A stretch of DNA of 64,000 nucleotides, taken from NCBI GenBank assembly GCA_964187785.1, contig OZ076409.1, positions 39,000,001-39,064,000 of the forward strand, given 5' to 3'. This document shows, piece by piece, positions 7,448 to 46,100 of this stretch. Source of the stretch: Amphiscolops sp. MND2022. Taxonomy: Eukaryota. Positions within the stretch are counted from its first letter, which is position 1. Each line of letters opens with the position of its first letter. Made by a program: the position numbers and the translations under genes. Under the pieces are notes generated by a model. It was given only the letters and a program-made list of their open reading frames with translations, ran no database searches and was not told where the DNA came from.

Positions 7448-7453
7448 AATAAA
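7448..7453 (+). terminator. Candidate polyadenylation signal of the antisense gene
   Basis: AATAAA 100 nt downstream of the TGA at 7345-7347. Confidence 0.55.
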
Positions 7454-7677
7454 TGGAAAGCACAGTAATGACCATAGTGCGAATGATACAAATCCAGATG
7501 CTACGGCGGAAAGATCGGTAGTAGTGTGTTTACAACATTAGTTATTTTGGTGCCCAACAGCTGTTTTTCTTTTGAGTTGTTAGTGATAGTTACAGAGGAT
7601 ATTAAGTACGTGTAAATCAACAAGTTCGTCCAACAGTTCACTTGAAGCATTGTCTTCGGTATTTTTGTATCATAGAT

Positions 7678-9943: not shown

Positions 9944-9970
9944 TCAGATTTAAAGTGAAACTTTTCTTGG

Positions 9971-16566: not shown

Positions 16567-17050
16567 AGAGGTGAGAGAAAAGGAATTATGAGTGAAGACT
16601 GGATTCTGGATGATTTTCGATGTATTTTACTATTTTGTGCCGTTATTCGAACTCAAATTCACTATTTCTGAACTTGAGATGTAAATGCGATGAGTTTTAC
16701 AGTAAGACAAGGATACTAGTAAAGAATGAGAATAGTTAACGAGGATTAAGTAGAGTTCATCCAAATTTCATCGAATAGATATCAATCAAGAAATTACTCA
16801 GAGTTGTGAAGGTAGCGTTATTTACGATGAATAAGAGATATGTTTTCTAGTTCAAATCTGTCGTAATTCGTCCAACTGGACAGTAGCTAATCGCAATTTC
16901 GGTCTGTGTAAACTCTAATGGCGGTCCAAAATACAGCAGTTCACGTGTCTTTTCGGGCTGGTAAGACGCTAAATCTCTTACCAGCCGACTCTTATTGGCT
17001 ATTGCCAGTTGGTGCTAATTGGTAAGTCACGTGACCGGTGTTGTGAACTG

Positions 17051-18491
17051 CCGCAAGTTGGCCAAACCACATGGTACATCTACATATGCTAATTATGACT
17101 AATCATCACTTTACAATGTCGCAATTGCCTGCACACAGTGTCATGGTTTCTATAGCAACTCAAATCATTCAATAATGTACTAATTTCAAGTCAAAACAGA
17201 GTAAGCTGCATCACAGGATGAGAAAACGATGTTTTTCCAACTAATTCTAGCATTAAAATCAATACTTCAAAAGCAAAGATGGAAACGCGATGAATTCGTC
17301 AGAATATTTGCTGATTTTCAAGTCTAGTTTAGCTCTGGATGAAAATGCGATGAATGGTGGTCTTTTAGCTCGAAAATCAACACGATATGAACTGACGATG
17401 ATAAAAGGATGAACTCGTCTTCAAAATGAATGATTTCCAGCACAATTTAAATCAACGATGGTAAAAGGATGAACTCTCCTCGAAAATAACTAATTTCCAG
17501 CACTAGTGAAATTGACGATGAATTCAGGATGAATTCAGCCAATAAAACAGGTGAAACAGCTAATTCTGCAGTGAAGACAAATATACGATGACTTTAGGAT
17601 GAATACATTCAATAAAACAGCAAAATCTAATGAATGAAATTCCAACGATGGGTTTAGGATGAACTCAACTGAAAATTCGGCAAGTTCTAACGTAAGTCGA
17701 ACTAGCGATGAATTTACGATGAACTAGTGATGAGTTAATCTAATAAAACAGATATCCAGCACTTCACTCTTTTTTAGGATGAATTAAGGATGTACTTTCT
17801 CATTTCTTGTAGTTTCTGTTCAGGACGATGAAATATAGATGTGTTATGCTCTTTTTAAGAAATGAGAAGCACATTGAAGGTTAATAATCACAAAACGACG
17901 ATGAGTATAGGATGGCTTTCATGCATTTTAAAGTCCCGTGAGATCCGCTGATGGATCACTAAATAAAATCAAATATATGTCCCAAATTTTGTTCACCCGC
18001 AATCTTGGCGATGTGATTGCGATGAACCTTGATAATATAGCACCGTAATTTCACTAATAGATCAAGTTGTAGGATCACTAAGTCCGCTGATGGATTAGTG
18101 ATGAACTTTCCTGAAATTCGTCACGACTACAAGTCCTGAGGCGAGGGAGCTAGTAGAAGTTACAGATTCCATTATTTCTACATCTCTCGGTCCAGTCTGA
18201 CCGGAAGACTTCTCTCCCTTATCGTGACAAACCAATATTGAATAAGATAGCACATTAAAAGCTATTGGCAAGATCATTTGTGCGGACACCGGAATTAGAG
18301 CGCTCAGTATTAAGTAAATATATATAGCTCAAACTCAGGGGGGATAGGGATTAAAGTACAAGTAACGTAGGGTTGCTCACAACCATGGCTCTTATTATAT
18401 GACATCATATTGCCCATATCTAAGTACATAAGACATAATATTTACATTACAAATATTTAGTAGATTATATTTCCATCATGCTGGCATGACA
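17051..18491 (-). repeat. 5' LTR of element A (inner boundary uncertain, at or before 17051, or 17139)
   Basis: Matches 1-1441 and ends ...CATGACA followed by the unrelated flank GGGAC. No canonical tRNA PBS was recognised next to it. Confidence 0.92.
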
Positions 18492-18919
18492 GGGACAATC
18501 TAATTCGAACGATTAACAGGTAACGACCAAACTCCAGTGTTAGAGGTTGGAGTCTAACTCTAACTTTGAGAATAAAGAACATGATCAGCGAACGACTCTA
18601 TTTAATGGAGACCATGCGGTAAAATGAAACTCAGCTTAGCTGAAGCTTAATGTGGTTTGTTTGACAACAACTATTTCTTTTTACTGCTGCTAAACTGAAC
18701 TTTTTGTTTTACGAGCTTTGCGCTCTGCCTCATCCGGTTTGTTATTTTCCGCCCATATTCCATATGGGAAAGGAAAATATTCAAATCAAACGTTTTTTTT
18801 TTACAAAATTTGCCAAGCACCAAATTTATATTTAACTTTAAGGGTGTTACCCATAGAATTCAAATCATATAAATTTAGCTTCGTACGATTTGTATTTGTG
18901 GAGATTTCTGGACTTTTTT

Positions 18920-21100
18920 AGTTGACCCCAATGACCCCCGAATGACCCAATAAAGACTCCAAAATAGGAAAATTTCCAATTTTTTTAAGTTTAAAGGCAG
19001 TTTTTGTCATTTTTTTTTTATAGATATCGTATATTAGAATGTTGAAAACGTTTAACAAGGCACAAACTCGTTGCCCAATAGTCTTTTATGAAGAGATAAT
19101 TGCTGTTTTCCAGAAGGAAAAGATCTCAAATTGACACTGGAAATGACAAAAATCCAAACATTTCCCAATTTTCAAAGTTTTTTTTTGCAGTTTTTGTCAA
19201 ATTTTAGATAGCCTTCGTGGATTAGAATGTAAAACACGCTCACATGGCACTACTTCGTTGTCCAGTAGGCCTTTCCGGAGAGATAATTGCTGTTTTCCAA
19301 ACGAAAAAGTCTCAAATTGACACCGAAAAAGACAAAACTCACAAAAGTTTTCAGAGTTTTTGTTTTTTTATTAAAGTTTTGCGGATTGGAATATTTGGAT
19401 GTTTTCACGATTTTGCGGATTGGAATATTTTAAGGGGTCAACAAGGAGAGAGTGGGTTGTCGAGTAGGCTTTCTCGAAGAGTTTATTGCAGTTTTCTACG
19501 TGAAATTGTCTCAAATTGAACGCGAAAACGACAAAAAACCCAAAACTTTCCATTATTCCAAGCTTTTATGCATTTTTTGTTAAAGCTTTGACGGTTTTCG
19601 TGGATTGGAAACTTTAAAAGTGTCAACAAGGAGAGAGTCGGTTGTCGGGTAGTCTTTATTGAAGAAATAATTGCAATGTTCTGAATGAAATGTCTGAAAT
19701 TGGCATCGGAAATGACAAAAAGCCCAACTTTTTCCAATTTTCAAGGGTTTCATGCCTTTTTTCCGAATTTTCGACCGACTTTGTGGATTGGAACGTTGAA
19801 AAGGGTCAACAAGGAGAGAATGTGTTGTCTAGTATGTTTTTCCGAAAAGTTTAGGGCAGTTTGCTATATGAAAAACTCTCAAATTGACACCGAAAACAAC
19901 AAAAAACCCAAAAGTTCCAATTTTCAATTTTTTTATTGCATTTTTTGTAATGGTCTCGACGGGTTTTTGGATAGGAATGACCTAAAGGGTCAACAAGGAA
20001 AAAATTGGTTGTCCAGTAGGCTTTCCCGAAGAGTTTGTTGCAGTTTTCTCCGTGAGAATTTCCCAAAATGACACCGAAAACGACAAAAAACCCTAACTTT
20101 TTCCATTTTTCAAAGATTTTATTCAATTTTTTTTAAAGTTTCTTCGGTTTTCGTGACTAGAAATTTTCAAAGGACCAACAAAGAGAGCGTGGGTTGTCGA
20201 AGAGTCTTTAATGAAGAGATAATTGCAATGTTCTGAATGAAATGTCTGAAATTGGCACCGGAAATGACAAAAAACCCAAAATTTTCCAACTTCCAAGGAT
20301 TTTATGCATTTTTTCCAAATATACGACAGACTTCGTCAATTGAAACGTTGAAAAGGGTCAACAAGCAAAAAATGTGTTGTCGAGTATGATTTACTGAGGA
20401 GCTTACTGCAGTTTTTAAGTGAAAATTTTTCAACTTTACACCGATAATAAAAAACCTCAAAGTTTTCCACTTTTCTATGTTTTAATGCATTTTTGTTAAC
20501 ATTTCGACAGACATCGTGGAATTGGAACATTTTGAAGGGTCAACAAGGAGAAGATGGGTTGTCGAGTTGTCTTTAATGAAGAGATATTTGCAATGTTCTG
20601 ATAGAAAATGTCTCAAACTGACACCGTAAGTAACAAAAGTCACAAAATTTTTCAATTTTACCGCTTTTATGAATTTTTCCTAAACTTTCGACAAACTTCG
20701 TCAATTGAAACGTTAAAACGAATAAACAAGGAAAAAATTTGTTGTCCAATTCGCTTAGAAAAAGTAAAAATGCAGTTTTTGAAATGAAAACTGTCCGGAA
20801 ATGACATCGAAATACAAAAATTCGAATGTTTTACGATTTTCATTTGTTCTATTATTGTCAAAATATCGATAGACTTCGCGGACTAAAATGTTAAAACGCT
20901 AAAACATGGGGAAATATGTTGTTTTGAGGAGCATCGTTACGAGATAAGTTCAATTTGTTAAAGATAATTGCATCAAATTGACCATGAAAAGTCGGAAAAA
21001 TTGAAGTTTTTATCGTTTTTGATGCAATTTCTGTACAATTTCCGATAGATTTCGTTCTAAACTCCAATACAATATCTCAAAAACATTAAAACGAGGTATG
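18920..21100. repeat. Diverged tandem array, unit about 184 bp, about 11 copies
   Basis: The AAATTGACACCGAAAA-like anchor recurs near 19128, 19314, 19513, 19697, 19881, 20066, 20249, 20432, 20615, 20798, 20975. GGTCAACAAGGA and GAAGAGATAATTGC blocks also recur. Confidence 0.85.
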
Positions 21101-25144: not shown

Positions 25145-28100
25145 CTGCTTCAAGGATGATGGCGTTTCGTCTCTCTCTGAACATGATGGCCTGAGAGGTC
25201 ACGTGGTAGCTTCGTGATGTCACGTCTTTCTCTCCCACATCTCTTCTCGCTCGTTTTTTCTCCGAACAGGTAGTCGCTGACAAAATTCAGGGTCAATTGA
25301 AAGATTAACAAATCAAGATCCTTTATTATCTAATTTTGATCTGAAAATTAATCGGCAATCAAAATAATTATAACCTTCAATGAAGACATGACTACGAATT
25401 TTGTTCTCTAGTACTCAAAACGTTGGGATGACTGTTAAAAATAGGACAACGGCCTTGTTTACAACTCGGTCTGAACAAAAACGTTTTAAATCATGGCTCC
25501 CCACTATTTCCAAGTATTTTAGTTTGGTCACCTTGGTATCAGATTAAAATCTCCTACGTGAAAATCTCCTAGGTTAAAATCTCCTAAGTTAGAGAAGTGA
25601 TTAGCTCGTGTTCTCGATTTTCAGGAAAATGAGATTTTTGCAATTTTGCCAGCGTACCTGTTGAGTTAAGAAATCATGCAACAGAACGTATGGTTCATTT
25701 TGATAGAAAATTTATTTTCCTTGAATATTTGCTACTAAAATGGAAAGTCCTTACGAGGGTCGCAAGTGGCGCTGTTTTCCTGAAGACAAGCCTTGACCTC
25801 GCAATGGATATAAATGAGGTCAGCAGCCGCGTCTGACCAGGCGAACGCCAGCACAGACATAGGGTCAAGCTTGCCGTTCAGAGAGGCCCTAACATCTGCG
25901 TCTCTCTGGAAAGTCCCTTCATCTGTATTTGGGCATCTAAAGTTTAATTGCAACATGACTTTGATCGAGAAATTTCAACATTGTCACCATAGAAACTTAC
26001 CGAGGTATTTTTAGTTGTCGACTTTTTTGGAATTTGTTCATTCCATCAGAGAACTCCTGCTGTTTTTGATATTTTCAGTTAAAAAAATCGACTATTATGC
26101 AGTCCCGGGTTTCCCGACCAGGCCGATCACAATCTGATCATATTATGGCACCATACAAATTTCCTTACTATGATCTTGCCATGATCGGCCTGGAATCATA
26201 TGTAACGATAAGCGCTGGCGCTTGAACCGCAACGTAGAGTGGAGGAACTAGAACAGCGAATATAATCTGGGACCTAGATCTCCGCGGCTCTAGCTCATTT
26301 TCCCTCCGAAGGAGCCAGTCCCAGGGTGGGGGAACCGTCTTGTAGGATACTCTCTGGCCTGGTCCTAGTCTGTAACTGCTGAAAGTAACAGGCATCTTGC
26401 AAGTCTCAAGACCACTGCTCAACTAGCCTTTAAAAATTGGGCTGAAAACGATGAAGGTTGAACCGTGATATTGGAGAATCTGATAAAATCGCCAAATGGG
26501 ATAAACAGATGTTAAACAACAGCTCTCGAGCATATTAATTTACCACATCGAAAAATACAACAAGAAATTAAGAGTCCAGAGTCATTTGATGGAAATTGAC
26601 TTCAGCTTCCCAGCGCTAGCTCTAGTTGCCACACAGGATACCGCAGGGATACTCAGGCGAACATCTGGAACACTGGTTTCCTTTACTGTAGTAATGGATA
26701 TCTCCTAGAGATTGACACAATACCGTGTTCTGTATGCGTTGGGGACGTCTTTTTTGTCGTCTCCGGTGCTTGTTCGTCGCGAGCGGCGATTTCTGCTTTT
26801 CTGGGGTGCTTTTTCTAGCAGGTACTTCGTCTTGAGCATGTTTGAGTGCCACGTCAGATTTGAACGAATTTTTGACAAAATTTCTAAACATGTCGGTTGA
26901 TATTGCTGTACCAGAGCTTGCCGTTACATCACTCCCCAGGCTCCTGGCTTGTCGTCCCTGGCATGCGGCGTCTGGCTCATCTGGGAACTGCATCACAGAG
27001 ACTGCTGGGAACCATCATCCACACATCGGGGAACAAGGACGAGTCCTTGTTTTTCGGCAACAAAAAATTTTTTTTTGAGAAAGAACTTACTGCCTAGCTA
27101 TTTGTACAAAACACTAACGAGGTTTTAGCACCAGCTCGAGAGCTACAGTTTTCAGCCGGTTAAAACTTGTTTGGGCAGTTAACTTACGTAAAAACTTTTT
27201 TGCGACCAAAGTCGGCTAAAATTTCTTTTCTTTACCATTTGAGACTTATAGTCTTCATATCATTCCAGGCGATTACAAACTTTTTTTAGAGCTTGCGGGC
27301 TCACACGGTGAACAACCAGATTGATGAAGAACACCAGACTAGAAAGAAACGCAATCAAGAGGGATATGACTTCTTTTGATTGTGACAACTCAAAAACACC
27401 GCGAACGGTGCGCAACAAAAATAATAGTTTTTCTGAATAATGGTTTTTCTTTTCTTTCTGCTTGGTAATTCAAGCCACTGGGGCAGGCGTACTCTGCTGG
27501 CCGTACACCCAGTGCAACACTAATGGTACACTAATTTTATAACCATAACTATGAACAAAAATTGCACTTTGTACTGTAGCACCGTTCTGGATGAGAAGTT
27601 TTAAGGCACTGTTTGTTGGCAGTTTGTGAGGATATGGGGAGCACGAACGCTCCCATTAGCGGCTGGGTTTATTGAACCGAACTGCGTCGAGCCCGCTCTT
27701 TAGTGGCATCATCTAGGTTCTGTTCTGGATTATCAGTCGACACTGACGCTCGACGTCGGGGAGAGACTTCTGTGGCAACGGTTTCAGAGTCCGACGGACT
27801 TTCGGGAAGCGACAACTCGGCAATGGGCTGCACTAGTGCTGCATTGGGAGTCAACTCGGCGGCGTGCTCTCCGGAATGCTGCTGCGAGGTCTGAGGGCTC
27901 GTTCGCGATGAAGACGAGCCAACTGGTTCTGGCTTCAAGTTGTGGGTTGGAAGGTTAATGGTGATCGGTTGAGAGATGGGCCGATCCAGAGACATCGCCA
28001 TCGTTGGTGCGAGCATGGTAGGCGCGAACGCCTGTTGTCTCGCTATCTCTGCTCTACCTTCTACTGCTAGTGCGACTCGGCGTGAGATCCACCCAGGTTG

Positions 28101-31100
28101 GCTCCAGAGCCCGCAAGCTCTTCCATTTAGGAAAGCTAGCAATCTCCAACTCCAGACAGTATTCTTCCCATCTTGCTAGTTCTGTTGAGCCCAACACGGA
28201 ATTGATCTCATCATGCTGGACGATGGACATATCTCCGGACATGGTCATCTTTCCCGTAGGTTTCCATGCCGACTTCCCGGGGAATGGGGTAACGCGGGAT
28301 TGGAGATTCCTTTGCCTGATCTGAGCAGCGCCTTCAATCCATCCTGGGATCTGGGCCGACTCTAAGTGATGGATTTGACGGTTGAAAACCTCTGGGGCGC
28401 GTCCAACGGGTTTCGCCCTAGGCCATCCTAACGGCTCCTTCCAGTAGCGATTCGGGAAGGCGATGCATTTAAAGCTGTATAAAGGGTCCACAGGTGGACC
28501 AGCACTAGTGCTGGCGCGAATCGCCTTTCTTATGAACTCTTGACTCCAGGGGAACCTAAAGGGGACTCCTTCCAAACTGAGAGGTGCGGAGTACCAGTTC
28601 ACAGGCCCATGCTCTCGGGGCAGAGGACATGCTTTCCTGGTGCGCGCGCGCAACAAACCCATCAGGTTCTCCTCCAACTCTCTTTCGGATTTTATGTTCG
28701 TGTACCCATGCGGCACTTCACCACTCAGCACGGCATGTATTACCCTTGGATATGCCAGTGAGGGATGGCCTCGCAGATAGGTGCTAAAGGAGACCATGTG
28801 CACTTGGACTGCTGTTGCTAATGGTTTCGTAGGGTATCGGCACACGCCCACTGCGCCAAAGATAGGGGCCAAGACGGGAGCCATGGCTGCCACGAAATCT
28901 TCTACCTCAGCCAGGGTGAGATCAGCAATCTGCTGCGGCAAGGGGAATCCTGCCGTTTTCCGTGGGATCTGCTGGTCTGAGTTATGTAGTGGTTGGGATT
29001 GGTCCACGCCCACGAATAGACCGGAGGCGAACACCAGGATGGAATATAGCCAGTGCTGGATCGACGCACGCACGCGCTCCAGTTGGGCGGACTAGTCTTG
29101 TTGGTCTTTGGAGGTCATCAAGAGTCCCCAGCGGGTCAGGCTGCGTAGTTGTCCCTGTGCCAGGACCAAATAGCTGTTGAACACGGTGAGGTCGCAGGCA
29201 ATCACGATGTCGACCAACAAGGCCAGTGGTCCGGCTACGAACTTTGTTGGGCCAATCGCTAGCGCGAGCGCTAGTATTTCTCCGACAGTTGCCTCCCCAA
29301 TTGTTTCTAGCAGCTTGTCCGTTTGCGTAGGGGTCAGTGAAAACTCGGAAGTTAGCACTTCAAGGTTCCATCCCAGACCAAGGCTGGTACAGAAGGCTTC
29401 CAATGGACAATTGAGCTCTCGAGCTACTTCTGCCAGAGTTCTGGTGGCAAACCTAGTCTGATACCAATAGGCGTAAGTGGTGGCTGCGGCGTCAACCTCT
29501 GCCTTCAGATTTGTCGCTTCCATTGCCACGATGCACCGCAGTCCTACAGGCAGCTTCACGGGCTCGATTCCTGAGGCGAAGTGGATCTGAGGGATTGTTC
29601 TCTCAACGGTGCGCGCTGCAGGCCATGCACCAATTTGTTTTGTCAGTTCGGCTAACTCTGCGCGCACTGGGATTTCTTTGTCTTTTCGCACTAGCCAGTT
29701 GTACCGACGGACAGCCTCTCGTTCGGTTACATTAGACTCTCGGGCGATGCGATTGCCGTCAAGGTCAAAGGCCAATCTGCCCATCCGCATTCCATGATCA
29801 TAGAGGATAGCGTCATCAATGGTTAGTTGAGCATTTCCCGAGCGTTCTATAGCCACGAGTGCTCTAGATACGGCGGCAAAGAAGGCTGGATACGATAAGG
29901 TATCTAGGCGCAGGTCCTCTCGGTCCACACGCAAGTTTGGTGCACAGATGGCGAATTCGACTCTGCGCGCCTTGCATACCTCCAGCAGAATGTAGACAAA
30001 CTGCTGCAGACTTCGTGGCCAATACATGAATCCTGGTGGGGATACAAAGAGCGCGAGCGCTCCCAGACGACCCCGAAGGATCCCTGCGGCACGTTCCATT
30101 GCACCGACCACCTCATTTACCAGGGCTGCAACGTCTCCAAGTCGTCGGACATCGGACATTATGGCGTCCAGGTCACGCAGCAACCCTTCGCAAGCCATGT
30201 GATCCAGAAAATTGGCAAAGATCACGCGCTGTGGGGGTGGTTCCTTCTGTGATCCTCTTAAGTTGGGATCGTATATGGCTCCAACCATCTCAGCGACCTC
30301 AGCGAAGCGAGACAGGGGCATAGTCAGCACCAGCACGTCAGGCATCAAATTGTCAATAGGGAGGTCACTCCGGCAAGTAGAATCAACCGCCATGCAGTAG
30401 CGCGCGCGCTGCAGAGCTGCTTTCAATAGTGGTTTCAGAGATCTCAAATTGCGAGCGTTCGCTTCCCATGTCTCACCTTCTCGCAACACATACCGTGCAG
30501 GGAATTGCTCGGTGATATTATGTTGCAGGGGTGCCATGTAATCGTTAGTTGTCGTAGGCAGCTGCTCTCGAGCACGCTGTTCCCAGGCCTGCTCTGACAT
30601 ATCTGCGTCCCGGGGGCGCAGCGAACGTGTGACCTGCGCCGGTATCGTGGTTTGGTTAATCTCCTTTTGCTCCGTTTCAGTTGGAGGGGTCCTTTTCTTT
30701 ATAGCGCATTGACTGGGATAGAGATGCTCAGCCGCCATCCAAATGCGTTTGCTATCATTGGTGACTACTGAACCGGATACGTCATCAGATGGAGGGAGGA
30801 AGGCTGGAGGACGGGCTTCCTCCACCGTCTCAGGTATCTCTAGGGACATATCTATTGGATTCGTGCCCGAGGGCACAGAGCTCACTTCCGAGCCTGCATC
30901 CGGATCTCCATACTGCTCGGTCGCGTCCGCTAGAGACATTTGAGGTGCGCTTCTGCCTAGGTGACCCACCCGGTACGGAGGCCTAGGGATGACTACACTC
31001 TTCAGCTGGGGTCGAGGTACATCAGCGCGCTTGTCGGGAGGGGGACGACTAGTCGGGCTCTCGGTTACTGAGCTAGCTGGGGTAACTGAGACAGTTTCTT

Positions 31101-34100
31101 CAGTCAGTCGCTTTCTCCCCGTTTCTTCTCGTGCGCCAGTAGCAGCGCTTGCGCTGTTGCTTGGTCCAGCGGCAATTTCCACATCCATAGATGCCGTCTC
31201 GACTAAGGGAGCAGGAGGGTCACAGCCCGCGGGCTGGACAGCAGCTTGCAGATAAGTGGTTAGTCCAGGGATTCTCTGCTCTACGGCACGATCAAAATCG
31301 GAGGAGTTGGGATAGTTCGCCACTGCTTGCAAGGCCACAATTACGGCCTGTTCGCTGGTACTCCTTCCCGTCAGCTCTAGGTTGGGTATGGGTGGCAACC
31401 GGGACCTCGAGGGCTCCCGATCCGAGACTGGTGCATTAGTAGTGGTTTGCAGTACCATGTGTGGTGCTCGATATGAGGTTCCAAAGGCGGGTGAACCGGA
31501 ATAGGTTGGCGTCATTGGTACTGGTTTTGGTGCTGGTGGGGGCAATGCGACCATCTGAGGAGGTGGCATTGTTGCTATGCTGGCAGGCACCATACACAGT
31601 GAGGCTTCTTGCTCGAATCGCGTGCCCTGGCTGGGCCCGAGCATTGTGGTAGAAGGTTCATCCAAGAACTGGTGCGTCAAATCATGGCCATCCCACGCAT
31701 TGTTTTGGCAGGTTAGCGTGCGACGATAACCGGCTACTTCCGTCACCAGAGACACAGATACTCCCGGCAGCGTCTGCATTGTGTCTAATTGAGTGAGCAG
31801 GGCGGCCACGCCCGCTACCGCTAACGGTGAGAGGCCGTTCCTCAGTCGTTCCTCTACATATTGGACTTGATTAGTCCTCTGCGCTCGCGCAGGCAATTCC
31901 TGAGACCTATTGGCGTGAGGTCCCGTCGTGGAAATAGGCACCGTGTTGTTGGGGTAATAAGCCATTATATCATAGGTCTAAAAAGAATTACCGTTAGGCA
32001 TACTAGGTGCATTGTGGGGAGAGCTTAAGGCTCATCATCCAGCTGCTATAGTACAAAGATGGTTCCATAGGAGAACTGCAACAAATTTAAATTGTAGTTC
32101 AACTAACTAACTGGAACATAAAGATAAGAGTTATTTAACGCTACGTTACAAGGTAATCATTTCATGGGATGGTTTAAGACTTCCTCCCAGACATAACGAT
32201 TATCGGGGTGGGCAAATCAAATAGGGGGGCAACAAAAAAGAGTTTTGAGCGGGCTACTCCGGCCCTATGTTTAGAATGGACACATACACGCGGTTATGCA
32301 GCACCACGTGAATGCCAGTGCCCTCCAGCAAATTCGTTAGGGTATGGTACAGGTTTACCAATGAAAGGGTGGGTCGCTCTGGATCCAGTATAGGTAGGTG
32401 GACCCTTGTGGATCCTTTCTCTATCAAACGCTGTATCAAGTGCGTCATACAACGTAGGTAGTCGTCGGTGAGCAGCGGCGCACGCTGGTTTGCTCTGATT
32501 ATTAGTAAGTGAATACTCTGATTGGGGTTTGGGTTGATATCGGGAGGAATGGTGAGAATCTCCCCCACCTTAGGACGTAAGGAGAATACATTCTCCTTGC
32601 CGCATTCTCGTAGCACGTACCGTAGGGCGGCTGAGTTAGTCTCTAGGTCAGCGGGACACGCTAACACCATATCACCTTCTACTTGAAGAAAATCAGCCAC
32701 ATCATATGAGAGATGCTCTGTTGGGGCTGGATACAGAATTCCCGGGTAGATAATCTCTCTGCCCGGCCCATTGTCTGCAGGCAAGCATACAAGGGGCGTA
32801 CGCCCCTGGATTGCAGCCAGGTCTTGCCACACCGAGCGTGGTATCGCTCGATTATCACTGCTCGCCCTGACCCATGTATCTAGGGTGCTCAAAGCGGCTT
32901 TTGGGGGAAGCGGAATCTCAAAAGTATGAGTCCACTCGTCCAGCAACCTAATGCGAGGATAATTGGTGAAACAAGTGATGATTAGTTCCAACCACCACGC
33001 GAATTTCACTTTGCCACGATACCAGTCTATGATGTGGAAGCAAAGTATCAAGTCCGCGGTAGTGAGGGTCCTCAGACCTTCCAAGCAGGACAGCAGGTGC
33101 AGTGGTTCCACTATTGCCTCCACTCGTGGAGCAGTGACCAGCAACCACCAGTGCGGCGCTGGGCTGTATACTCCGCCCGGATCCACGTGAATTCCGTATT
33201 TGTCACAAAGAAGATCAGCGGTGATGCATCGGACCATTTGCACAGGCTCCCGCTCGAAGTTGAAGGGTCCAAACGCAATATTGCTGGGTACTGGGGGCAT
33301 CACCGTTGCGAGGGTAAACTCTAACCCTTTTCCGTCGCTAGTCCACTCCTTGAATTGAGGACATGGAGCTTTCGCTACTCCAGGTAGTGATAATTTCTCC
33401 AGAATAGTATCCACGGGATGGTCTCCGTGTCGTTCCAGGGAGGAATAAGTCTTTTCAGCTCTCACCGTAAGGCGATGTACTAGATTTTCTCCCCGCTCCG
33501 GAGGAACTCCCCGGGCTCCAGTGGGAACCCTCCGGTTCTCATTGACGGCTAGCAAGCAAACACAGTCTCGCAGCCCACAGGTCCCACACTTGTAGCGTGG
33601 CTGCCGCCTGCCTCTCAGCTGATATCGGGGGACCTCAGAAGCCTCGGTCGGTATTGCTGTTTCCGACGGCTTTGTTGTTGTTGTTTCTTTCTTCCTCGTT
33701 CTTGCCTTCGCTCTGACCAGCCTTTTTTGCGTTTTGGGTGGTCTCCCCCTCCCCCTTTTGAAAGAAGGAGCGGTCCCTGCTCCGGGCAATGTCGTGGGAA
33801 GAGTAGGGACATTGGATTGAGCGTTGTCATCCTCGGTGGAGGATTTCAGAGGAAGGGAAGGAGCGGCCGGCCAAATGGGATAGTTACTGAGGAAACTCGT
33901 CAGCGATGGATTTGTCAGTAGTGGGGCCGATGTTCCCAATAATGAGGGCTGTTTTTCGGGAGAGGATATTTGTGGTGACGGAGAGCGCGCGCGCTCATGG
34001 TCTGAGAATAGTTGAGGTAGATGATGGGTAGGTGATATTGATTGGTCTGAAGGGGGTTGGGGTTCGGGTTCCGTACGATCAGCATCAACGGGATCAGGAG

Positions 34101-37100
34101 GTACCGGTAACATGATTTTGGACAACTCGTCGTCAGTGCCCGAGGTCGAGTAGTCGAACTGCTGGTAGTGCATGCGGGAACCTCCAGCACGTAGTTTGGT
34201 GCGCAGACGGGTATCCATCCAATGGTGCTTGCGCGAAGGCAAGGATATGTCAGATGCTTCTGAAAGTAGTTGTTCAGTTTTATATGAAGGCTGGGACTTA
34301 TCGTCGTCGACTTCTTCAATAGAACGTTCAGGGTCAGGGTCCATGAGTACCACTATTTCCCCGCTGTCCGCTTGCGCGGTGGCGAGCTCAAGGGGCCCAC
34401 TATGATGAGGTTTCAGGCGCTCAAAATGAACCTTTTGGCTGGTGTCCAATACATAGACGCGTCCTTCTTGAAAGACTTGTACTATTTTGTGCGGGCCACG
34501 CCAGGCGCGCATCAGTTTGGGAGAGCCCTTTTGCGGCACGTAGCGGCAAAAAACCCAGACAAGCTCTCCTGGCTGGTAAGCTCGTGCTCGGATGGCACGA
34601 TCATATTTCAATATTTGGCGTAATTGGGCTTGGTGAGTATTGCGCCGGACCAAGTCGTGAATTTCTTGTTGGCGAGCCAACACATGATCCACGTATGCTT
34701 CATGCGTATCAAAGGACTTGGCCGCAAATTCAGGGTACAAAAAGGTGAGGGGGATTGCTTTCTCAACACCCCTTGTTAACATGTAGGGCGAGAAGCCGTT
34801 AGTGGCGTGCCTGGTGGAATTATAGGCACCGATCACTTCATCTAAGCATTGGTCCCAGTCGCGCATGCGACGTGAGCAAAAGACTCGCAACAAGGTTAAG
34901 AGGGTGCGGTTTTGCCGTTCCACTAAACCTTGAGTTCGTGGATGTCCGGCAGTGGAGGTCACCTTAGTGACGTGAGCTGCCTTTAGGAACTCATTGGAGA
35001 CTTCAGCGGTGAGGTTTGGAGCATTGTCTGATTGCATGCGAGTGGGGGTGCCGTGGCGGGCAAACCACTTCTGCAGCAGCAATCGTGAGGTGGTTACTGC
35101 GTCATAGTCGTGGTGACTACAAGGGACTGCCTCTGCAAATTTAGAGAAATGGTCGATGATGACCAAAATACCGGTGTTGTTATTATCAGAGGGGCAGATT
35201 TTTAAGTGGTCGTACTGGACCAACTCGTTGAAGTAGCCACTCTGGATGTTTTTCAGTTGAAATCGTACGTCACCAGGCTTGTCACGTACTTGTTGGCAGG
35301 TGAGGCACTGGCCGACGTATCGACCGATGCTGCGTCGTATGCCGGGCCAAGTGTGGCGCTCTTGAATTCGAGCTACCACTTTTGAGATACCTTGGTGTCC
35401 CATTGCGTCGTGCGCACGGAACAGAATTTCGTGCTGGTACAGTTGAGGCATTATGATAATGCACGGACGTTCGTGCAATGGGCGTTGGGTGGGGGAGTAT
35501 TGCACGCAAAGGACATCATTTTTGTTTATGAACAAGAGGTCCTTTTTCTGGCGGAAGTAATTACGTGCGAACTGACGCACGTTCTCGGGAAACACATCGT
35601 TATCTATGGATTCACACTGCACCAGCTTTTTCAGCGCTAGCACATGGACATCGCGGTTTTGGGCTAGGACCAAATCCTTGATCCCATGCACGGTATGAGT
35701 GTGTTCATGGAGCTCGGTGTCGATGTCCTTGAGGGCCATGATCGACTCGCGCACGCCACCAGGAGAATTCTGTAGCATGGCGTCACTCGTTCCCGTCACA
35801 GAGTAGATGGTGCTCGAGGGGACATTTACTTCATGTGTTGGCAGCAGGTAATCCTCGCTCGCCTCAGTGGTGACGTCTATCCAGTCTTCAGGATAGTCTG
35901 GGTAGAAGTCCTCGTGCTTCTGCAGTACGGGTGGAGGCTTGGGCGGTAGAGGCGCGGCTAGCGCCTTCGCCTGTCGTTCTCGCTTGTTCGCTCGTTGCAC
36001 ACGGCGAAGCACACGGAGTGCTTGGTCAGGAGCCTTAGGCTCCAAGTTCTGCAGATGCGGTGGTAGGTCAGGATGATTTGGAATGATTCGACCTTGCAGG
36101 TCGAACCAGGGGGCTATGGGGAGGTTGTCGAATTCCTCGGCCGAGAGGAAATTCCAACGCTCTCCAGTAGCTGGCAGCTGCGCAAGCTGCCGTTCTCGGC
36201 ATCGATAATCGTTGGTTCGTTTGCTCAAGCCATCAGCATTGCGGTGTTGAGTTCGCGGCCTGTGTTCCACGCGAAAGTGATACCTGTCCAGCGTCATAAT
36301 CCAACGTCCAATCAATGCTTGGTCCGTGGAGTAGGTTTTCAACCAGGATAGGGCTTGGTTGTCGACTCTCAGGGTGAACTTTAAGGTAGCTGTGGTACTT
36401 CAGGATGAAGTAGTAGGCTGCAAACATCTTCAGCTTGGGTGCCCCATATTTGGCTTGAGTGGTGGTCAGTTTCTTGCTGCCGTATATGATCGGTCGTAGG
36501 CGTCGCTCTCCTGGAGCTCCTTGCCACTGGTGTAGGATACCGGAAATGGCAACGGCGCTGGCATCGGTGTCCAGCACAAACTCTCCTTCGGACTCAGGCT
36601 GCGCGAGCGCAGTCGCCTCGATCAATGCTGTCTTGATTTCGTTGAAGGCTCTTTGTTGGTCAGGGCCCCATGCAAACGTGGCATTCAGTCCCTTAACGGC
36701 GTGGAGGGGCGCAACCAGCTTGGCATGCCATGGGATAATTTCACGATAATAATTAGCGAATCCCAGGAAACTTTGCATTTCGGTTTTGTTGCGGGGGATG
36801 TCCCAATCGCGCAGTTTGGCAACAGCCTTCGGGTCCGGCTTGACACCTTCTGCGGAGACTACGCGTCCCAGATATTTGATTTCTGGTTTCATGGAATCGC
36901 ATTTGGCTACGCGCATCTTGAAGCCAGCCTCGCGGAGGCATTCAGAAACCTCGCGCAGACGCGTCATGTGATCTTCCACAGTCTCTGTTGCTATTACTAT
37001 GTCGTCGATGTATGCCATGACCATGCTGCCTTTGCGATTGACCATTTTTTGTAGCGCTCGCGCTATTGCTCGCTGGAAGGTGGCTGATGCATTGCACAAG

Positions 37101-40100
37101 CCAAATGGCATTCTTCGCCATTCGAAGAGTCCCATTTTACAGGCAAAAGCTGTCTTGTGGCGGTCCGCCTTTCGCAAGGGAATTTGCCAGAAAGCCCAGG
37201 CAAGATCTATGCTAGTGTAGATCCTTGCATTGCCCAGTCGCGCCAGGCTTTCATCGATGCGGGGCAGGGGGTAGGCATCCTTAATGGTTACCTCATTCAG
37301 CGGTCGGAAGTCACAGCAAAAACGTAACTCCCCGCTTTTCTTTTTTACCATTACGATACCACTTGCCCAAGGGGACAGTGAAGGTTGTATCATCCCTAAG
37401 GCCAATAAGCTCCGGACCTCTTGGTTGGCTCGTTCAGCCTTTTCGGGGGACATTCTGCGAGCACCTTCACGGTGCGGTACAGCCCCAGGCTCTACCTCTA
37501 TGGTGTGTTTAGCAATGGTACAGCGGGCAATGTCCGCCTTACGTTTCATGAATAGGTCATCAAACTCGTTAAGAATGTTGTCCAAGGACTCGCAGGCGCT
37601 AGCGCCCCAGAGTTTTTTAACTTCTTGCAGTTGAGAATCGGGCCCAGGGATCGGGGCCAATATGTCTGGATCGGTGCGCTTGCGAATCTCGCGCTCCGAA
37701 AGCCCCGCTTCACTTGGATCCGTCGAAGACAAAAACTCAAATTCAGATGAAGAAGTTAACTCAGAAGCAGTGGATAGATTCATTTCACTGTACCTTTTAT
37801 GAACAAAATTTGCTCGACTGTTGTCGGCTTCAGTTTTGTGGTCAGTTTCCGCAGTAGCATCCAGCTTTTGGGGCACAGCCTGGTATACTAAAGACACAGG
37901 CACTACCGTGCCCAGGTGGGCACCACATCGTACACGCTGCTGGTTGCTGGTGAGGTTTACCAGACTCACATACAGTGTTCCTGTCTCACTGACAGTGGCC
38001 ACGCTGTCCTCTAAAAAGATGGTATTTTGCAGTGAGGGATCAGACAACGAGGCGTTAAGCGCCACGGTCTGGAAGATTAATGGTTCAAGCGCGTTGGTGA
38101 CAAGTTTAGCCTTTGCCACTGTACGCTCGAAAGGCTGTAGGACCAGGTCACTGTCCAGAGCAATGGGGGTAGTTAGCGAAGCATCACCTACCTGGGTGTG
38201 TGCATGATGCCAGACGTGCTTCACTGGTGCTCGCACCACTATCTTCATGGAGGTTAAATCTACCAGGACTTGGTAGGAACGGAGGAAGTTTCGACCCAAC
38301 AGAAAGTCCTCCACGCCCATTGCGTCATCTACCACGACTAAATTGGTTTTGAGTTCATACCCTCCCAGCTGGAAGCGTATCTGCTCAGCCAACCCGAAAG
38401 TCTTTATTGTCTTTCCATTGGCAGCGTACAAGTCAATTTGATAGGGTTTCAGGACCGCACCGGTCCGTGCAGCTACCCGGTTGAAGGCGGAGAAGGTTAG
38501 TATAGACACCCCGGAACCAGTATCCACCAGGCCTCGCAGTGGGATAGGTGCCGCATGGGGCACCACAAAGGAGACAACAAGCGACGCACGCTCATCTATC
38601 CGCGCTTCCCCGGTGGGTTCTTGGTGGTTGATATTACAGCATTTCAGCTCTTGAGGTCCCAAGCATAAGCCGGGTGGGAATACATCTACCACCACACAGG
38701 CCTCGAATTTCGCGTCCACGCCGTCCATCGTTGCACAGACTGGTACTGGCGAGTATGTAGTCAGGGTCTCTGACTCTCCAGGGACGTACCACTGTTTTGG
38801 GCGGGGCAACTCCATCCGGTTATAGAGGACAGATAGCTCAACCCAGAGTTTCGCCAAGGTTAGCGTTGGTCTACGCACTTGCTCGGCTGCCAGCATCAGA
38901 TGAATCGAGAACAACGTCCTCCCTTGTGGATCGAACGTGGTGGGCTCCAAGCACGTCTGAATCTGCTTTGTTTCGCATGTGACTATCAGTGGGGGATGAA
39001 ACGCTGGGGGCTCCGCTGGGTGTAGCATTAACACGCGATCATCTTCCAGGGGTACCGTGTGGGCGGCCACACCGGCGGATTCCACCTCGGCCGATCGATT
39101 GTAGGCGGATTCATCATTAGGCCTTGGAGCTTGAGAATGCTCACCACAGGGGACATCCACATGGTCATAGACTCCACAGTGCGCACACTGATGAATGCAT
39201 GGATAATTCTCCAACACGCCATCAGTCACATCTTCAGCAGTAACTTTCACGCCTTCTGGCTCGGGAGCCGCCACTGGCTTGCGAGCCTGGTCGCGGGTGG
39301 GACAGTCCCGGGCAAAGTGCCCAGCTTGACCGCAATTAAAGCACGCGCCAATGGGTAGGCGTGCCGCAGGCTGCGCTGCTGCCTGATTTGGCGGGGCATT
39401 GCTTGCAGGTGGGGGAGGCATTACTCCTTGTGGTAACACCATCTTGTTGGGAGGTAGCGGCGCGAAGGGATGAGGTCTAGACCTCATCGCTAGTCTGGGG
39501 TCATAGGGTTGAGGGAATTGGTTGGGTTTGGGGCGATTGCGCTGCAATTGGCGGGTGGTGAAGCGAAGGGATTCCACCGTAGGTGGGTCAGTCAGGAAGG
39601 CCTCCGAGGCATACACTATAGCTAGTTCCCGCCTCAGCGCTGGGTCTCGCACACCTTCCATAAAGCGCTGGAGGATTTCATAGCGCTTGGTAGTGATTGT
39701 CTCTTGTGGGAATCCTTGACTCCTAAGACCCTCTAGAGCGTCTAAATACTGCATCCAGTCTTCTTTCTCAAGTTGGATGCGGCTCTGGAAAGCTTGTCGT
39801 ACTTGCATCCGATTTCCTCCAGCGCCAAAGCGGCTGGATAGCAATTCGAACACCTTCTCGGGGGTGTCACGTTCAGATTCCGCTTTGTTAATGATGTAGT
39901 TGCGGGCCTCACCTTCAAGGTGACCGATGATGCTCCAAGCCTGGTCCTCGGCTGAGACTTTGGTTTGCGTTCTCTTCAGGTATCTTTGCATAATAAGGAT
40001 CCACCCATCAATGGATCCGTCTTTCGAACCGCGATATACATTGGGTCTCGCCTGAGCGAAGTCTCTACCGGCTAGTAAGGGCGCTAACTCTTTTGACATC

Positions 40101-43100
40101 GCCTTTGATATGGCGGCCGTGAATCTCAGCTGCTCAGGGGATATGGTTTCTCCTTCTTCGACCTTAGCCTCCCCCGCGCGCGTCCTGTCATGACTACCAA
40201 GAGTGGCTTGTATGGATAGGTCAGCGATTTCGTCCTTTTTACGGGTGCTGCTAGCACAGGGAGTGCCCGAGGGCAGTCCATGATCGGCTGACACGTCTGC
40301 GGTCAAGTATAAGGAATCTGGTTCTGATATCAAAATAGGGGCAGTTGCAAACGTCGCTCCTTCGGTTTGAGAGCCTAGGGTTGCTTTGGTGTTGGATAAG
40401 TCGACTTCAACCGAAGAATCAAGATAGATAGTCGACATCGGGTCCACGCCTTGATCTCGAGTGGTGCTCTGGATTGCAGAAGGCATCGATGACGCTGCTG
40501 AGTCGTGATGTCCCCTCATCTGCACTCGTGCAGGCTTGCGCTCTGCCTCAGGCGTGGCTATCACCAAATTTCCGGCTGCTCCTTTATCTTTCCGGGGCGC
40601 AGGCACTGCCGGCCTGGAAGTGTTAGGCTTCAGCGCGCTCGGCAGTTCCGATTTCACTACCTGGCTCGGGCACGTCGGCTCCGAGATGCGGACTGGACCT
40701 CCATTCCGCACGCCTCCACTTGCACTGGGCTGCCGCGGGAGTGACCTCTCGCGCCTCATGACATCAATGGCATTGAGTACCGTGTGCATCTGATTGCTTA
40801 AGTTGTTGATCTGCGTTTCCACGCGCAACTCGCGAGCCATCAACATGTCATTCATCTCTCCCATCCGGTGACCCAATGTGTCCACTCGAGCATTTTGCAC
40901 GTTCTGCGCGGTACGCAATTGATCGCTGACCTGCAGGCCCTCGCGCATCGTCGTCTGCATCACTTTAATGTTCTCCACGATGGCAAGATGTTGCTCATTG
41001 CATTCAGCACGAGTGCTGGCCAGACCTGCTAGGGCCCGTTGGGTTTCGGCTTGGGCATCCAATAACGCTGCCTTGTATACTGAAGACCGTTGCGATGAGG
41101 CCAATGAGCCTGTCATACTCCTGACACGGGATGCTTCTTGACGTGGTTCGCCTATCTGTAATATGGGTGGTCGCACCCTCTTGTGCTTCCCATAGGCACA
41201 GACCCGGGTAGGTCCTCGAGTGGTCCCGAGTCCTCGCTGTCTCGCGTAACTCATGCCTCCCACATAAGTGAGGTCCTGCTCCATGTCAGTCTGTGAGCCA
41301 AGTTGTGTCTCTCCAGCCGGAGGTGCGCGCGAGCACCCTTCCTCAGCCGCCAATTCATCGGTTACATTCGAATTGGGCCAGCCCTCCTCCACTTCATTGG
41401 CTCTATCGCGGCAGGTTTCGTCGACCCACTGCTCGGTTCGACGCGAATTTTCAGAAACACTGGAGTTCTCTGAGGGAGGAACCATAGCGGCCAATTTCTC
41501 TTTTCGCTGTTGTTCGATAGTGACTTCGTCAGACATGTCGTCTTAAAAACGCGAACTATCTATCGTGACCCATGATTGTGAACCGGTATGGGGCACCGCC
41601 ATCGGTTCGGTGGCCAACGCGTTTATCAATAACGATCGAGTTACCGCTCATGATTACTCGGAAGACTCAAATTGGGTCGCCGAACGCACCAGGGTCTTCA
41701 ATTCGGGGCTGATCCCTTGGTCGTCCCGGTGAGAACTTAAGAAATTTGATGGTACTCAACGTCCTAGATTTTTCGAAACACGTTCTAAGGCTCGTAGGCT
41801 ATCCAAATTTGCACAGCGCTTTCCCACAAGCACGCTGGGCCCGAAAATCAACCTGGTTTCGGGCAAGAAAGTTCCAGTCACTCACAGGAAGAATTTCAAA
41901 GGATTTTGGTGTTTTTCAAAATTCGCACGACAACACTCAAAAGGCTCGTGTGTGCGCTGGAAGCGCTGTATCAAGCCCAAATTTGACCAGCAGATCTCAG
42001 GTACACGTAGGTTTACGAAACTGAACACAGTTTTGAGCTGCGCCCCTTATACACAGTTTCACCTGGGTACAGACGTGCGGTACCACTATGTACCAAGATA
42101 CACTGTTTTTCACGTCTTTTTCAAGATTGCGGTCCACTGGAAAGAGCTAGCAAGCTCACCTTTTCTGCAGTAACGTAGGAACTAGCACAAATTACGATGG
42201 TGGGCTGCAATATAGCCCCACCCGTCAGCTAGGGTGCTCGGGTTACTTGGAAAAATTAAGAAAAAACTGCCTTTTTGCACGCTTTTTTGGGGGCCACGTT
42301 TTTGCTATTTTCTCAACAAGTATCACACAGATCGGCACCAAACTTAGTAGCCTATGCCAGTGGGAACCTACAATGCCACTGAAATGGTCGAATTGAAGCG
42401 CGAGCGCTTATTTGAGGTTTCGACCCACTATGTGCGTTGTGCACGAAAAAACACTGTTTTTGACGACTTTTTTCACAAATTGACCAAGAGGATCACCTCA
42501 GAAAGTGATACTGCGGGCAAAATGGGATCAACGTGTTGCCCCACTATCCGTAGCACTGGGATAAACCCTCAATTGGTCGTGCCCGTTAGGTATAAGGCAC
42601 TGACAGTCCTGTAGTTTTGGATTTTCTCGGCCTTTTTGTGCTTTTCTGAAGTCGAAACAACAGAGAGCTTTTCTCGACTTTGGTGAGCAATACGCTCGCC
42701 AAATTTTCGGCACTAACGTTAATTTTTGTGGTGGTTACGAAAATGCAACCACTTTTGGCTAGGGTTCAGGAATCGATGACCCGACCCTAGCTCAGGGACA
42801 GTCCGGTTTTGTGGAAAATTGACCAAATTCAGTGCGTTTTTCCACTTTTCTCAGCACTGAAAAGGAATTTTTGCACGCGGTTTTCACCACAATGCGTTGT
42901 TTTTATTATAAAAACAGAAGATGAGAGCGCGCGGGCTCCCAGGTCTCGAAAACACTGAGTGCCCCAGAGGTTTTAATGATGCACTCTGGCACTCCTGAAA
43001 CTGGCCAAAAATCAAGGCTTTTCGACTTTTCTCAACGCTGAAAAGGAATTTTTGCAAGCGGTTTTCACCACAATGCGTCGTTTTTGCTGCTACAGTCGAA

Positions 43101-46100
43101 AATGAGAGCGCTCGAGCCCGCTCTCTTCGAAGAAGCTTCGCTCTGGGTGTTTTTGGTTAATGCACTTTCTCTACTCGAAAATGCCAAAAATCACAAGTTT
43201 TTCGCACTGTATTAGCCCCAGGCTGCCTGAGTCCGCTACAAAAGTTGCAATTAGTTTCCTGAGGGTCAACTACATCTGGGGTAGTGCCGTACACTGTCGT
43301 TTTGCACTTCCATACTCGTGTACGTTCACGTTTTGGGTGCCTTTTTGGCCAAATTCCCACTTTTTCCACATTTTTTGGCATCAAATTGGCACTTTTATCA
43401 CAATCAAAGGCTTCAACTTCGCCTTTCGTGCCTCGTGCCGGCTTTCTCGAGCCTTGCAGCTGCTTTTTCAAAACTTTCTACCAAAACTTCCTGGCTTCTG
43501 TGAGCACTAGTGCTCGAAACCAAGAAAAACACTAAAAAAACGCAAAAATGAGGTTTTTTTCTCCAAGTGCTATCCTTTTCGCAGAAAAGCACTTCGTAGG
43601 GTGTCGTTACATTTATAGTAGAACGTCACTGACCTGCACCAACGATTCTCCATCGAAAGAGGTGTATTTTCAAAATTTTCGCCAACCATACTCCATCCGA
43701 GCGACTCATCTGGTCACAGGGGGTGCATCTTCACCACGTTATTTCTCCACATCTAGACCAGACAGAAACACGCGGGTGGGACCATTAGCACCGTCTGTCG
43801 TTGCACTTGCTGTCCACCAAAAACCATGCCTCTAGGACGTCTCCACGAGAAATGGGAATAGGAAGTAGGCAACACAAGATTCGTCCCTTCCTTCGCCTCG
43901 CTGGAGCATGGTCAACCATCCATCCGGTACCCTCTTGCATGGCATAAAATGGCTGAAAATAGCTCAAAAAACCTGTTAGACACCCGTAGCCACGTGCTAT
44001 GGTCCCCTACACCTGCAAAAAGGTACCCGCTGATGGGTACACAACACATAACACATAAAGAGCGATTTTCTTCTAAAATGCCCAAAAATACCATTTTCGC
44101 ACCTGAAAACACGTTTTCTTCGGCATTTTCTCTGGTTCAACGCCTCTCCCAGTTCCAGTAAGACGTAATACGACTAAAAAGAGGTGAAACTCTGCTTCTC
44201 TCTCCTGTCCAGAGTCGAAAACGGGCTTGGCGCTGATCACCAGGGGGCCAGATCTTTTAAAAACCGCTAGGGAAAGCTTCCCAAGACGATCCCTCTGTGG
44301 TCGCCAAAAAATGAGATTCTATGTAACGATAAGCGCTGGCGCTTGAACTGCAACGTAGAGTGGAGGAACTAGAACAGCGAATATAATCTGGGACCTAGAT
44401 CTCCGCGGCTCTAGCTCATTTTCCCTCCGAAGGAGCCAGTCCCAGGGTGGGGGAACCGTCTTGTAGGATACTCTCTGGCCTGGTCCTAGTCTGTAACTTC
44501 TAAAAGTAACAGGCATCTTGCAAGTCTCAAGACCACTGCTCAACTAGCCTTTAAAAATTGGACTGAAAACGATGAAGGTTGAACCGTGATATTGGAGAAT
44601 CTGATAAAATCGCCAAATGGGATAAACAGATGCTAAACAACAGCTCTCGAGCATATTAATTTACCACATCGAAAAATACAACAAGAAATTAAGAGTCCAG
44701 AGTCATTTGATGGAAATTGACTTCAGCTTCCCAGCGCTAGCGCTAGTTGCCACACAGGATACCGCAGGGATACTCAGGCGAACATCTGGAACACTGGTTT
44801 CCTTTACTGTAGTAATGGATATCTCCTAGAGATTGACACAATACCGTGTTCTGTATGCGTTGGGGACGTCTTTTTTGTCGTCTCCGGTGGTTGTTCGTCG
44901 CGAGCGGCGATTTCTGCTTTTCTGGGGTGCTTTTTCTGGCAGGTACTTCGTCTTGAGCATGTTTGAGTGCCACGTCAGATTTGAACGAATTTTTGACAAA
45001 ATTTCTAAACATGTTGATATTGCTGTACCAGAGCTTGCCGTTACAATATATGGTTCAGAGTATGATCAGCCTGAAATCATGAACTTTTGTTCCAAACGCG
45101 GATTGACGTGATATGCAACCCAAACAAAAAAATCAGATATTGAGAACAGCCAGCTTTATAGAGGTAACAGAGCCTCATTCGATCTTTAGTATCTGCGAAC
45201 GATACATTGCAGGTCAGAAGAAAGCTATAAAGTTAAAGACAAGCTATAGTAACTCAATTTGTTCTCAGCCACTCCTTAGTTAATAACTAACACTTTTATT
45301 ATAGCAGTACCCACTTTGCAGTGTGAGTTTCGATTATTTCGAAAAAAATTACCAGTATTTCAGCAAAAGCTGCCAAAAATTGATGATTGCTACCTCGTTT
45401 TCAATTTGTTGATTGTATTGGACCTTTGGTTGAGGAATATCTAGTAATTTCATAAAGTGTATGCGGTAATTGACTATATTATCCTAATTTTCTTTTTATG
45501 GCTCCAGGCTGACCATACTCTGGGCCATAAAGATTTATGGTTCCAGGCTGATTATACACTGAACCATATATGGCCCAGAATATGGTCAAGCTGGGACCAT
45601 AAACTTTGCTTCTTTATGGAACATGGCGTATCATAGACTGGACCATATATGTCCAGAGTATGGTCAGCCTGGAACCATAAACCTTTATGGTCCAGAGTAT
45701 GATCAGCATGGATTCATAATGTGAGTATGATGGCAGAGTATGATTAACCTGTTTTTGTATGGGAGGGAAACCCGGGGTCGACTATTATGATGACTATATG
45801 TAGTCGTTTTTTAGTCGGCGCATTTTCCTTTAAGGAAAAAAGCCCGACTATTACAGTGGCTAGTTTTTTTTTTTTTTCGTCAGACCACAGAGCTCATCGC
45901 GTATGTACCACTTTTTACAGAAACTGATAAGTTCACTCAGGCCAAGTTCCACCAATGCAAACTTACTGCAAAGGGTCCCCCCTTTCGTTTTTTACCTTTT
46001 TTACGTAACCTACAAAACCGGAAGACTCCAAAGGGTCCCCCCTTTCAATTTTTTTTCGGCACTGTGCGAATTTTTTTTTCGAAAATTTTCAATTTTTCAA

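Follow-up and report, generated by a model that had tools for sequence, protein, structure and literature searches.

Results

A Ty3/gypsy element with an additional ORF downstream of pol

The window, that is, the whole 64,000-nt stretch of DNA that was analysed, contains on its minus strand an 18.8-kb Ty3/gypsy LTR retrotransposon that carries the open reading frame of interest, ORF2. The LTRs of this element (5' LTR, 44322..45045; 3' LTR, 26201..26928; both on the minus strand) were paired by self-blastn, are 98.4% identical over 730 bp, and have TG...CA ends that were read from the sequence. A primer-binding-site (PBS)-like stretch beginning with TGG lies 15 nt from the LTR end (44290..44306, minus strand) and may correspond to the 3' end of an Arg tRNA, and a purine-rich tract adjoins the 3' LTR (26929..26944, minus strand). 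The region 36233..41542 (minus strand) encodes gag with a CCHC motif, protease, reverse transcriptase and the first part of RNase H (Pfam zf-CCHC, gag-asp_proteas, RVT_1 and RT_RNaseH). The reading frame switches within RNase H, and the remainder of this domain, the integrase (Pfam Integrase_H2C2 and rve) and a long conserved C-terminal extension are encoded at 32254..36399 (minus strand). The assignment to Ty3/gypsy was supported by the presence of gag, the order protease, reverse transcriptase, RNase H and integrase, the TG...CA LTRs, the PBS and the polypurine tract, as well as by a match of the integrase profile to Ty3 Gag-Pol (E 5.7e-7). The sequences flanking the element are identical at three of five bases, without a perfect target-site duplication. 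Between the PBS and gag there is a 2.7-kb leader (41543-44289) that holds a 99-nt duplication and three donor-like sites.

The pol frame stops at 32254 and is followed by a 288-nt spacer and then by the ORF2 ATG at 31965, consistent with the placement of this ORF 3' of pol in the first-pass annotation. The first 957 aa of ORF2 (29092..31965, minus strand) extend to an in-frame stop at 29092-29094 and comprise a small conserved N-terminal domain, a low-complexity linker, a domain with a predicted SGNH fold and the start of a helical region. Past the stop, a tblastn search with the natural copy P0003 recovered the remainder of the protein, a conserved region followed by a low-complexity tail (27669..29091, minus strand), and a frameshift was located near 28100-28120. 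P0003 matches the window ORF2 from end to end at 92-95% identity, and 17 of 360 relatives are intact natural proteins of 1426-1521 aa; the window copy is thus a broken member of a family of proteins of about 1430 aa, the length that had been proposed for it.

Relatives of ORF2 numbered 84 in a first search and 197 in a profile search, and 515 cluster representatives were retrieved at E<=0.001, of which the best 150 were examined. Nearly all are unnamed; in 10 distant clusters a single member has a name, a hypothetical protein on a contig of 816 bp. The clusters have up to 657 members, many of them truncated, a pattern expected of transposon copies. No ORF2 relative turned up when metagenome and viral contigs were scanned. 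The contig of one relative, P0252, is 816 bp long and carries the label of a Bacteroidota MAG, which is best explained by eukaryotic contamination of the bin.

The first-pass annotation had made its reading depend on the ORF being conserved among copies and on an SGNH or flavodoxin-like fold being predicted for it, and conservation and a predicted SGNH fold were both found. Distant intact copies are 41-52% identical in aa 501-800, which include the SGNH-fold domain, and 45-52% identical in aa 901-1200, while the linker (17-31%) and the tail (21-29%) are less conserved. A more distant relative, P0352, is 28% identical and covers aa 463-1127, that is, both the domain and the region downstream of it, which indicates that the two parts travel together. 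The LTR-element context was read directly from the window copy. For the relatives it is indicated indirectly, by clusters that run to hundreds of members, many truncated, and, weakly, by 6 of 34 proteins with the pol extension whose contigs have the same length as that of an ORF2 relative, two of these six coming from a different identity tier. ORF2 would accordingly belong to a high-copy Ty3/gypsy family, and it shows long-term conservation.

Two further parts of ORF2 are also conserved. The region of aa ~760-1200 (window 27669-29680, minus strand) is as conserved as the SGNH-fold domain and contains hydrophobic helical segments; a profile of this region, when compared with the PDB, gave only weak matches to designed repeat proteins. 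The small N-terminal domain (aa 25-125; window ~31600-31890, minus strand) is kept in relatives down to 29% identity and had no family match.

Predicted fold of the central domain

The five SGNH-like motifs reported by the first-pass annotation were all located in ORF2, with the codon of Y523 at 30399 and the last motif ending near 29860, in agreement with the interval 29855-30400 originally assigned to them. An AlphaFold2 model of residues 505-745, built with 75 sequences, had a pLDDT of 90.3 and a pTM of 0.89. The model is an alpha/beta/alpha sandwich with five parallel strands (model residues 19-23, 40-44, 76-80, 133-137 and a short fifth) plus helices, in which blocks I, II, III and V follow each other in the SGNH order. 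An earlier model, built with 24 sequences, was of low quality (pLDDT 55.5, Z<=7.2), and SGNH entries already made up much of its list of matches.

Comparison of the model with 48,161 chains by VIA-align returned 43 chains at Z>=8. The top match was 3p94, a GDSL-like lipase (Z 10.8, rmsd 3.8, 173 residues aligned); PAF acetylhydrolase (PAF-AH) scored Z 10.6, and the OSK domain of Oskar was found at rank 41 (Z 8.3, rmsd 4.2, 159 residues aligned). No title among the best 50 rows pointed to a clearly different fold; these rows included CgnD and two phage tail proteins, which we take to be SGNH proteins. Eleven of the same 50 rows also appear in Table 1 of PMC10792757, which lists SGNH structures. 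A second structural comparison gave Z 10.3 for TesA (rmsd 3.1, 155 residues aligned), and values for TesA and PAF-AH span Z 10.3-10.9 over 155-173 residues. Foldseek against viral models yielded four matches at E<=0.001, one of them named as a lipase/acylhydrolase; against the PDB it returned nothing at E<=0.001, and most of its top rows were SGNH entries. From the model, aa 520-708 of ORF2 (29842..30408, minus strand; model residues 16-204 aligned to TesA 1-179) very probably adopt an SGNH fold, as had been suspected from the motifs.

The domain was not recognized at the sequence level. None of 75 family members and none of nine long relatives matched the SGNH/GDSL families of Pfam, and searches of the PDB by phmmer and profiles, of PHROGs and of the ESM Atlas did not identify it as an SGNH-fold domain. 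The hhalign comparison with TesA alone gave a probability of 0.1%, and that with 18 bacterial SGNH-region rows, at least one of which is in a wrong frame, gave a probability of 3% and a score of 21.1 compared to 17.6 for the best of 30 block shuffles. The Pfam blank would reflect a domain that has diverged too far, and is compatible with kinship to the GDSL/SGNH families.

Residues at the former active site

Residues were paired with TesA by equating model residues 16-204 with TesA 1-179, taking the end segments as ungapped, a register that places S529 on TesA Ser10 and R686 on TesA His157. These pairings come from range ends and motif register rather than from inspected coordinates; both are reproduced by global hhalign, and the ranges aligned to PAF-AH agree for R686, at the C-terminal end. 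The register for blocks II and III was inferred from Table 2 of PMC10792757. Residue counts skip rows without the column in question, include many rows from decayed copies, and take in relatives down to about 30% identity; when grouped at 62% identity, these relatives formed 23 groups.

In block I, Asp528-Ser529 (30379..30384, minus strand) has its Ser in the nucleophile position, with Asp in 35 of 38 rows and Ser in 34 of 38, and the leading Gly of the block is not kept in the family. In block II, Pro550 was found in 46 of 52 rows, and the following position 551, the oxyanion Gly site, is Leu or Cys in 48 of 52. Block III reads Asn585-x-x-Asp588-His589 (30199..30213, minus strand; Asn in 51/57, Asp in 54/58 and His in 52/58 rows), with a hydrophobic residue (L, I, F or M) at position 587, where the oxyanion Asn would be expected, in 53 of 58 rows; if the register is shifted by one residue, this position becomes Asp, which is still not Asn. 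In block V, the position of the catalytic His is taken by Arg686 (29908..29910, minus strand) in 51 of 61 rows and in 15 of 19 groups, and by His in a single row of 61. The first-pass annotation was therefore right about the loss of this His, and had missed both the conserved Arg in its place and the conservation of Ser529 and of the block III His. The Pro of block V is present in 50 of 59 rows, and the acid position is variable, with 10 different residues in 20 groups.

Counted by group, Ser529 is kept in 10/11, Asp588 in 17/18, His589 in 15/18, Asn585 in 14/17 and Arg686 in 15/19. A tree of the relatives places these residues in deeply separated branches, the branches being long and the deep joins unsure. 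Table 2 of PMC10792757 covers 30 structures; not one of them keeps only the Ser, and the ORF2 pattern is absent from that table. Pro550 was considered as a Gly replacement that removes a backbone NH; this idea was dropped, as Pro commonly precedes Gly in the sequences of the same table (1YZF, DltD, ZfL2-1).

Discussion

A proposed pseudo-esterase pocket and a possible re-wired enzyme

With the catalytic His, the acid and the oxyanion Asn gone, the classical SGNH reaction should not run in the ORF2 domain. In the ZfL2-1 esterase, the H282S substitution abolishes activity, according to the text of PMC3905857. Equivalents of Asp528, Asp588 and the prolines are structural in the block scheme given in PMC10792757, whereas Ser529, His589 and Arg686 are not needed for folding and are kept nevertheless, suggesting selection on the pocket itself. 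A Ser with an Arg next to it is well suited to an anionic ligand, and a lipid role has been proposed for transposon SGNH domains in PMC3905857; together these points argue for a binding or tethering module. The reading that we favor, with somewhat better than even confidence, is that the domain is a pseudo-esterase pocket that binds an anionic ligand without turnover, within a cytoplasmic accessory protein of this gypsy family.

According to this reading, ORF2 would be a cytoplasmic accessory protein, probably produced from spliced RNA as env genes are, and its middle domain would be a captured SGNH esterase turned into a pseudo-enzyme. The fold, the pocket and the Ser would have been kept, both oxyanion residues (Gly and Asn) would have been lost together with the acid-base pair, and an Arg would have taken the place of the His. 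The Ser-Arg pocket would most likely hold an anionic group, such as a fatty-acid carboxylate, the phosphate of a lipid head group or a nucleic-acid phosphate, and the bound ligand would anchor the RNP or the particle of the element at a membrane or granule. Lipid binding, RNA binding and the absence of catalysis are in each case what we infer.

A counterpoint to a pseudo-enzyme is that Ser529 and His589 are kept better than a dead enzyme would need. The conservation of Arg686, Ser529 and the block III His leaves a re-wired enzyme as a candidate, in which Ser529 would be a nucleophile activated by His589, or Arg686 would stabilize an oxyanion or phosphate; the domain would then be a slow hydrolase or acyltransferase that acts on lipids or on a modified host protein. 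Ser529, Asn585, Asp588, His589 and Arg686 are indeed all conserved across groups, and natural SGNH enzymes listed in Table 2 of PMC10792757 tolerate the loss of the Gly, the Asn or the acid. However, every enzyme in that table has the block V His, His589 follows a structural Asp in the favored register and need not reach the Ser, and the conservation of Asp528, Asp588 and the Pro residues can be explained as structural. We therefore hold a re-wired enzyme to be possible, although doubtful. A bolder version, which we would place slightly lower still, is that an old gypsy lineage rebuilt the SGNH site into a Ser/His/Arg arrangement outside the described classes, and that this arrangement, as part of a non-envelope protein of 1430 aa, serves either to disarm a host defence or to modify or bind the lipids of membranes and thereby let particles pass from cell to cell.

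Comparison with OSK

The first-pass annotation had compared the domain with the catalytically dead OSK domain of Oskar. The likeness of fold stood (Z 8.3, no triad in either; PDB 5a4a), while the likeness of residue pattern did not: ORF2 keeps the Ser and has lost the Gly, OSK has the opposite arrangement, and ordinary esterases match the model better, at Z 10-11. Among the 30 SGNH structures in Table 2 of PMC10792757, OSK is the only one without the His, and it is also without the Ser, having Asp in its place and keeping the Gly; furthermore, it belongs to a host germline gene. An OSK-like module, the surface of which would bind element RNA or host silencing factors or serve as a protein scaffold with the pocket being incidental, would fit with the RNA binding of this dead SGNH domain in vitro (as described in PMC12247748), with the match of the model to OSK over 159 residues at an rmsd of 4.2, and with the long low-complexity linkers of ORF2. 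The charge of the ORF2 domain is near neutral, though (K+R 18-23 vs D+E 16-23 in nine sequences), conservation is centred on the former active-site blocks rather than elsewhere, and the residue pattern of OSK differs, so that we consider such a module unlikely.

The envelope question

That ORF2 replaces env, as had been proposed, we infer from its position alone. A candidate splice-acceptor region, made up of a branch point, a pyrimidine tract and an AG, ends 12 nt upstream of the ORF2 ATG (31978..31997, minus strand). The pattern used is a loose one that was chosen after the site had been seen, and it occurs six times in the element compared to 1.4 expected from base shuffles; it provides a lead, and no more than a lead, that the ORF2 message might be spliced.

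The env position and this candidate acceptor would also agree with ORF2 being an unconventional envelope or membrane protein with a receptor-binding or receptor-destroying SGNH domain, like viral haemagglutinin-esterases and phage tail proteins, the latter being among the fold matches. Hydrophobic segments occur near aa 910 and aa 1027 (Kyte-Doolittle 19-mer 1.5-2.3), and a spliced leader could supply a signal peptide. Against this, there is no signal peptide from the start Met common to the subfamilies, the hydropathy maximum in the first 40 aa being <=0.1 for P0001, P0003, P0021 and P0062; longer hydrophobic N-termini appear in some gene calls only and cannot be aligned across subfamilies. 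No env family of Pfam was matched and no internal furin site was found, with furin-type RxK/RR motifs present in two of six proteins and confined to their last 10 aa. By hydropathy only, the peaks of 1.5-2.3 are internal, with none at the C-terminus where a membrane anchor would be, and they are weak in the distant subfamily. An envelope function is thus very improbable in our view. Even so, the two internal hydrophobic segments, combined with a possible spliced leader, would allow for a membrane role of ORF2.

Relation to known retroelement SGNH domains

An SGNH ORF located 3' of pol has already been published for the Vesta LTR elements of bdelloid rotifers (Rodriguez et al. 2017, PMC5408684), and retroelement-borne GDSL ORFs are reviewed in PMC6431247. 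As described in PMC5408684, ORF3 of Vesta resembles ORF2 in that it is a separate ORF with an SGNH domain, 3' of pol, in an LTR element without env, and an auxiliary or membrane role was proposed for it. The Vesta ORF3, however, has intact catalytic residues and an amplified ORF of about 1.3 kb, whereas ORF2 has lost three of the S/G/N/H residues, is invisible to Pfam, and holds its domain as ~190 aa of a 1430-aa protein. In its workings ORF2 resembles the active GDSL ORF3 class, to which it does not belong. The GDSL derivatives of the Penelope-like Athena-L elements are, like the ORF2 domain, retroelement SGNH domains without catalytic residues; by the description in PMC5408684, through which alone they were compared, they belong to another element class and group with PC-esterases.

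The esterase of ZfL2-1 ORF1p (CR1/RTEX/Penelope; PDB 4c1b), described in PMC3905857, is another transposon-borne SGNH fold, and appeared in the Foldseek list at rank 48 (E 0.036), that structure being domain-swapped. According to the same source, it shares with ORF2 a block II with Pro in the second and often Arg in the fifth position (Arg in 34/52 ORF2 rows), but it is active, has a full triad and belongs to ORF1 of non-LTR elements, and its transposon-specific His is F, I or Y in the ORF2 family. Amphibian Ngaro elements, as presented in PMC9210276, also carry an extra 3' ORF with an SGNH domain of unproven function; these differ in being tyrosine-recombinase elements in which the SGNH ORF follows the recombinase and is recognized by standard searches. 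The text of a recent env survey (PMC13524379) does not mention SGNH. A description of the ORF2 family was not found in the literature covered, which lay outside Repbase, subscription journals, figures and supplements.

What is new in ORF2 is the site that keeps the Ser and has Arg for His, the invisibility to Pfam, and the placement of the domain within a 1430-aa protein that has other conserved regions as well. Work on ZfL2-1 and Vesta has raised the question of whether transposon SGNH domains act by catalysis or only by binding, and a high-copy gypsy family that keeps the fold and pocket over deep divergence, with His changed to Arg, provides a natural test. If a lipid is indeed bound without turnover, binding would be what such elements select for. 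The ORF2 family also illustrates that cargo in the env position can go unnoticed by Pfam, and its residue pattern is one that the 30 structures chosen to represent SGNH proteins in Table 2 of PMC10792757 do not show.

Other features of the window

The pol protein of the ORF2-bearing element continues for about 700 aa beyond the integrase (window 32254-~34400, minus strand). The last 380 aa of this extension are conserved in 34 proteins, with 35-97% identity in the best segment, and may consist of two similar alpha/beta units, for which hhalign gave 1.5%. A resemblance of the extension to TARG1-type macrodomains was considered and found no support in the PDB, Pfam, PHROGs or hhalign, the target of the latter being MacroD-type sequences, and the ESM Atlas was blank.

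A second gypsy element occupies positions 1-18491, with LTRs that are 99.9% identical over 1441 bp. It has ORFs on the plus strand, at 3332-7347, that run antisense to its pol, and one of these ORFs has a weak zf-BED match (E 0.0025); no relative of ORF2 was found in this element. Two related repeat-bounded elements of ~4 kb lie in opposite orientation at 47649-52479 and 59461-64000, and are 80% identical over 3.7 kb and without long ORFs. Positions 18900-20900 hold degenerate tandem repeats, the unit being roughly 184 nt long.
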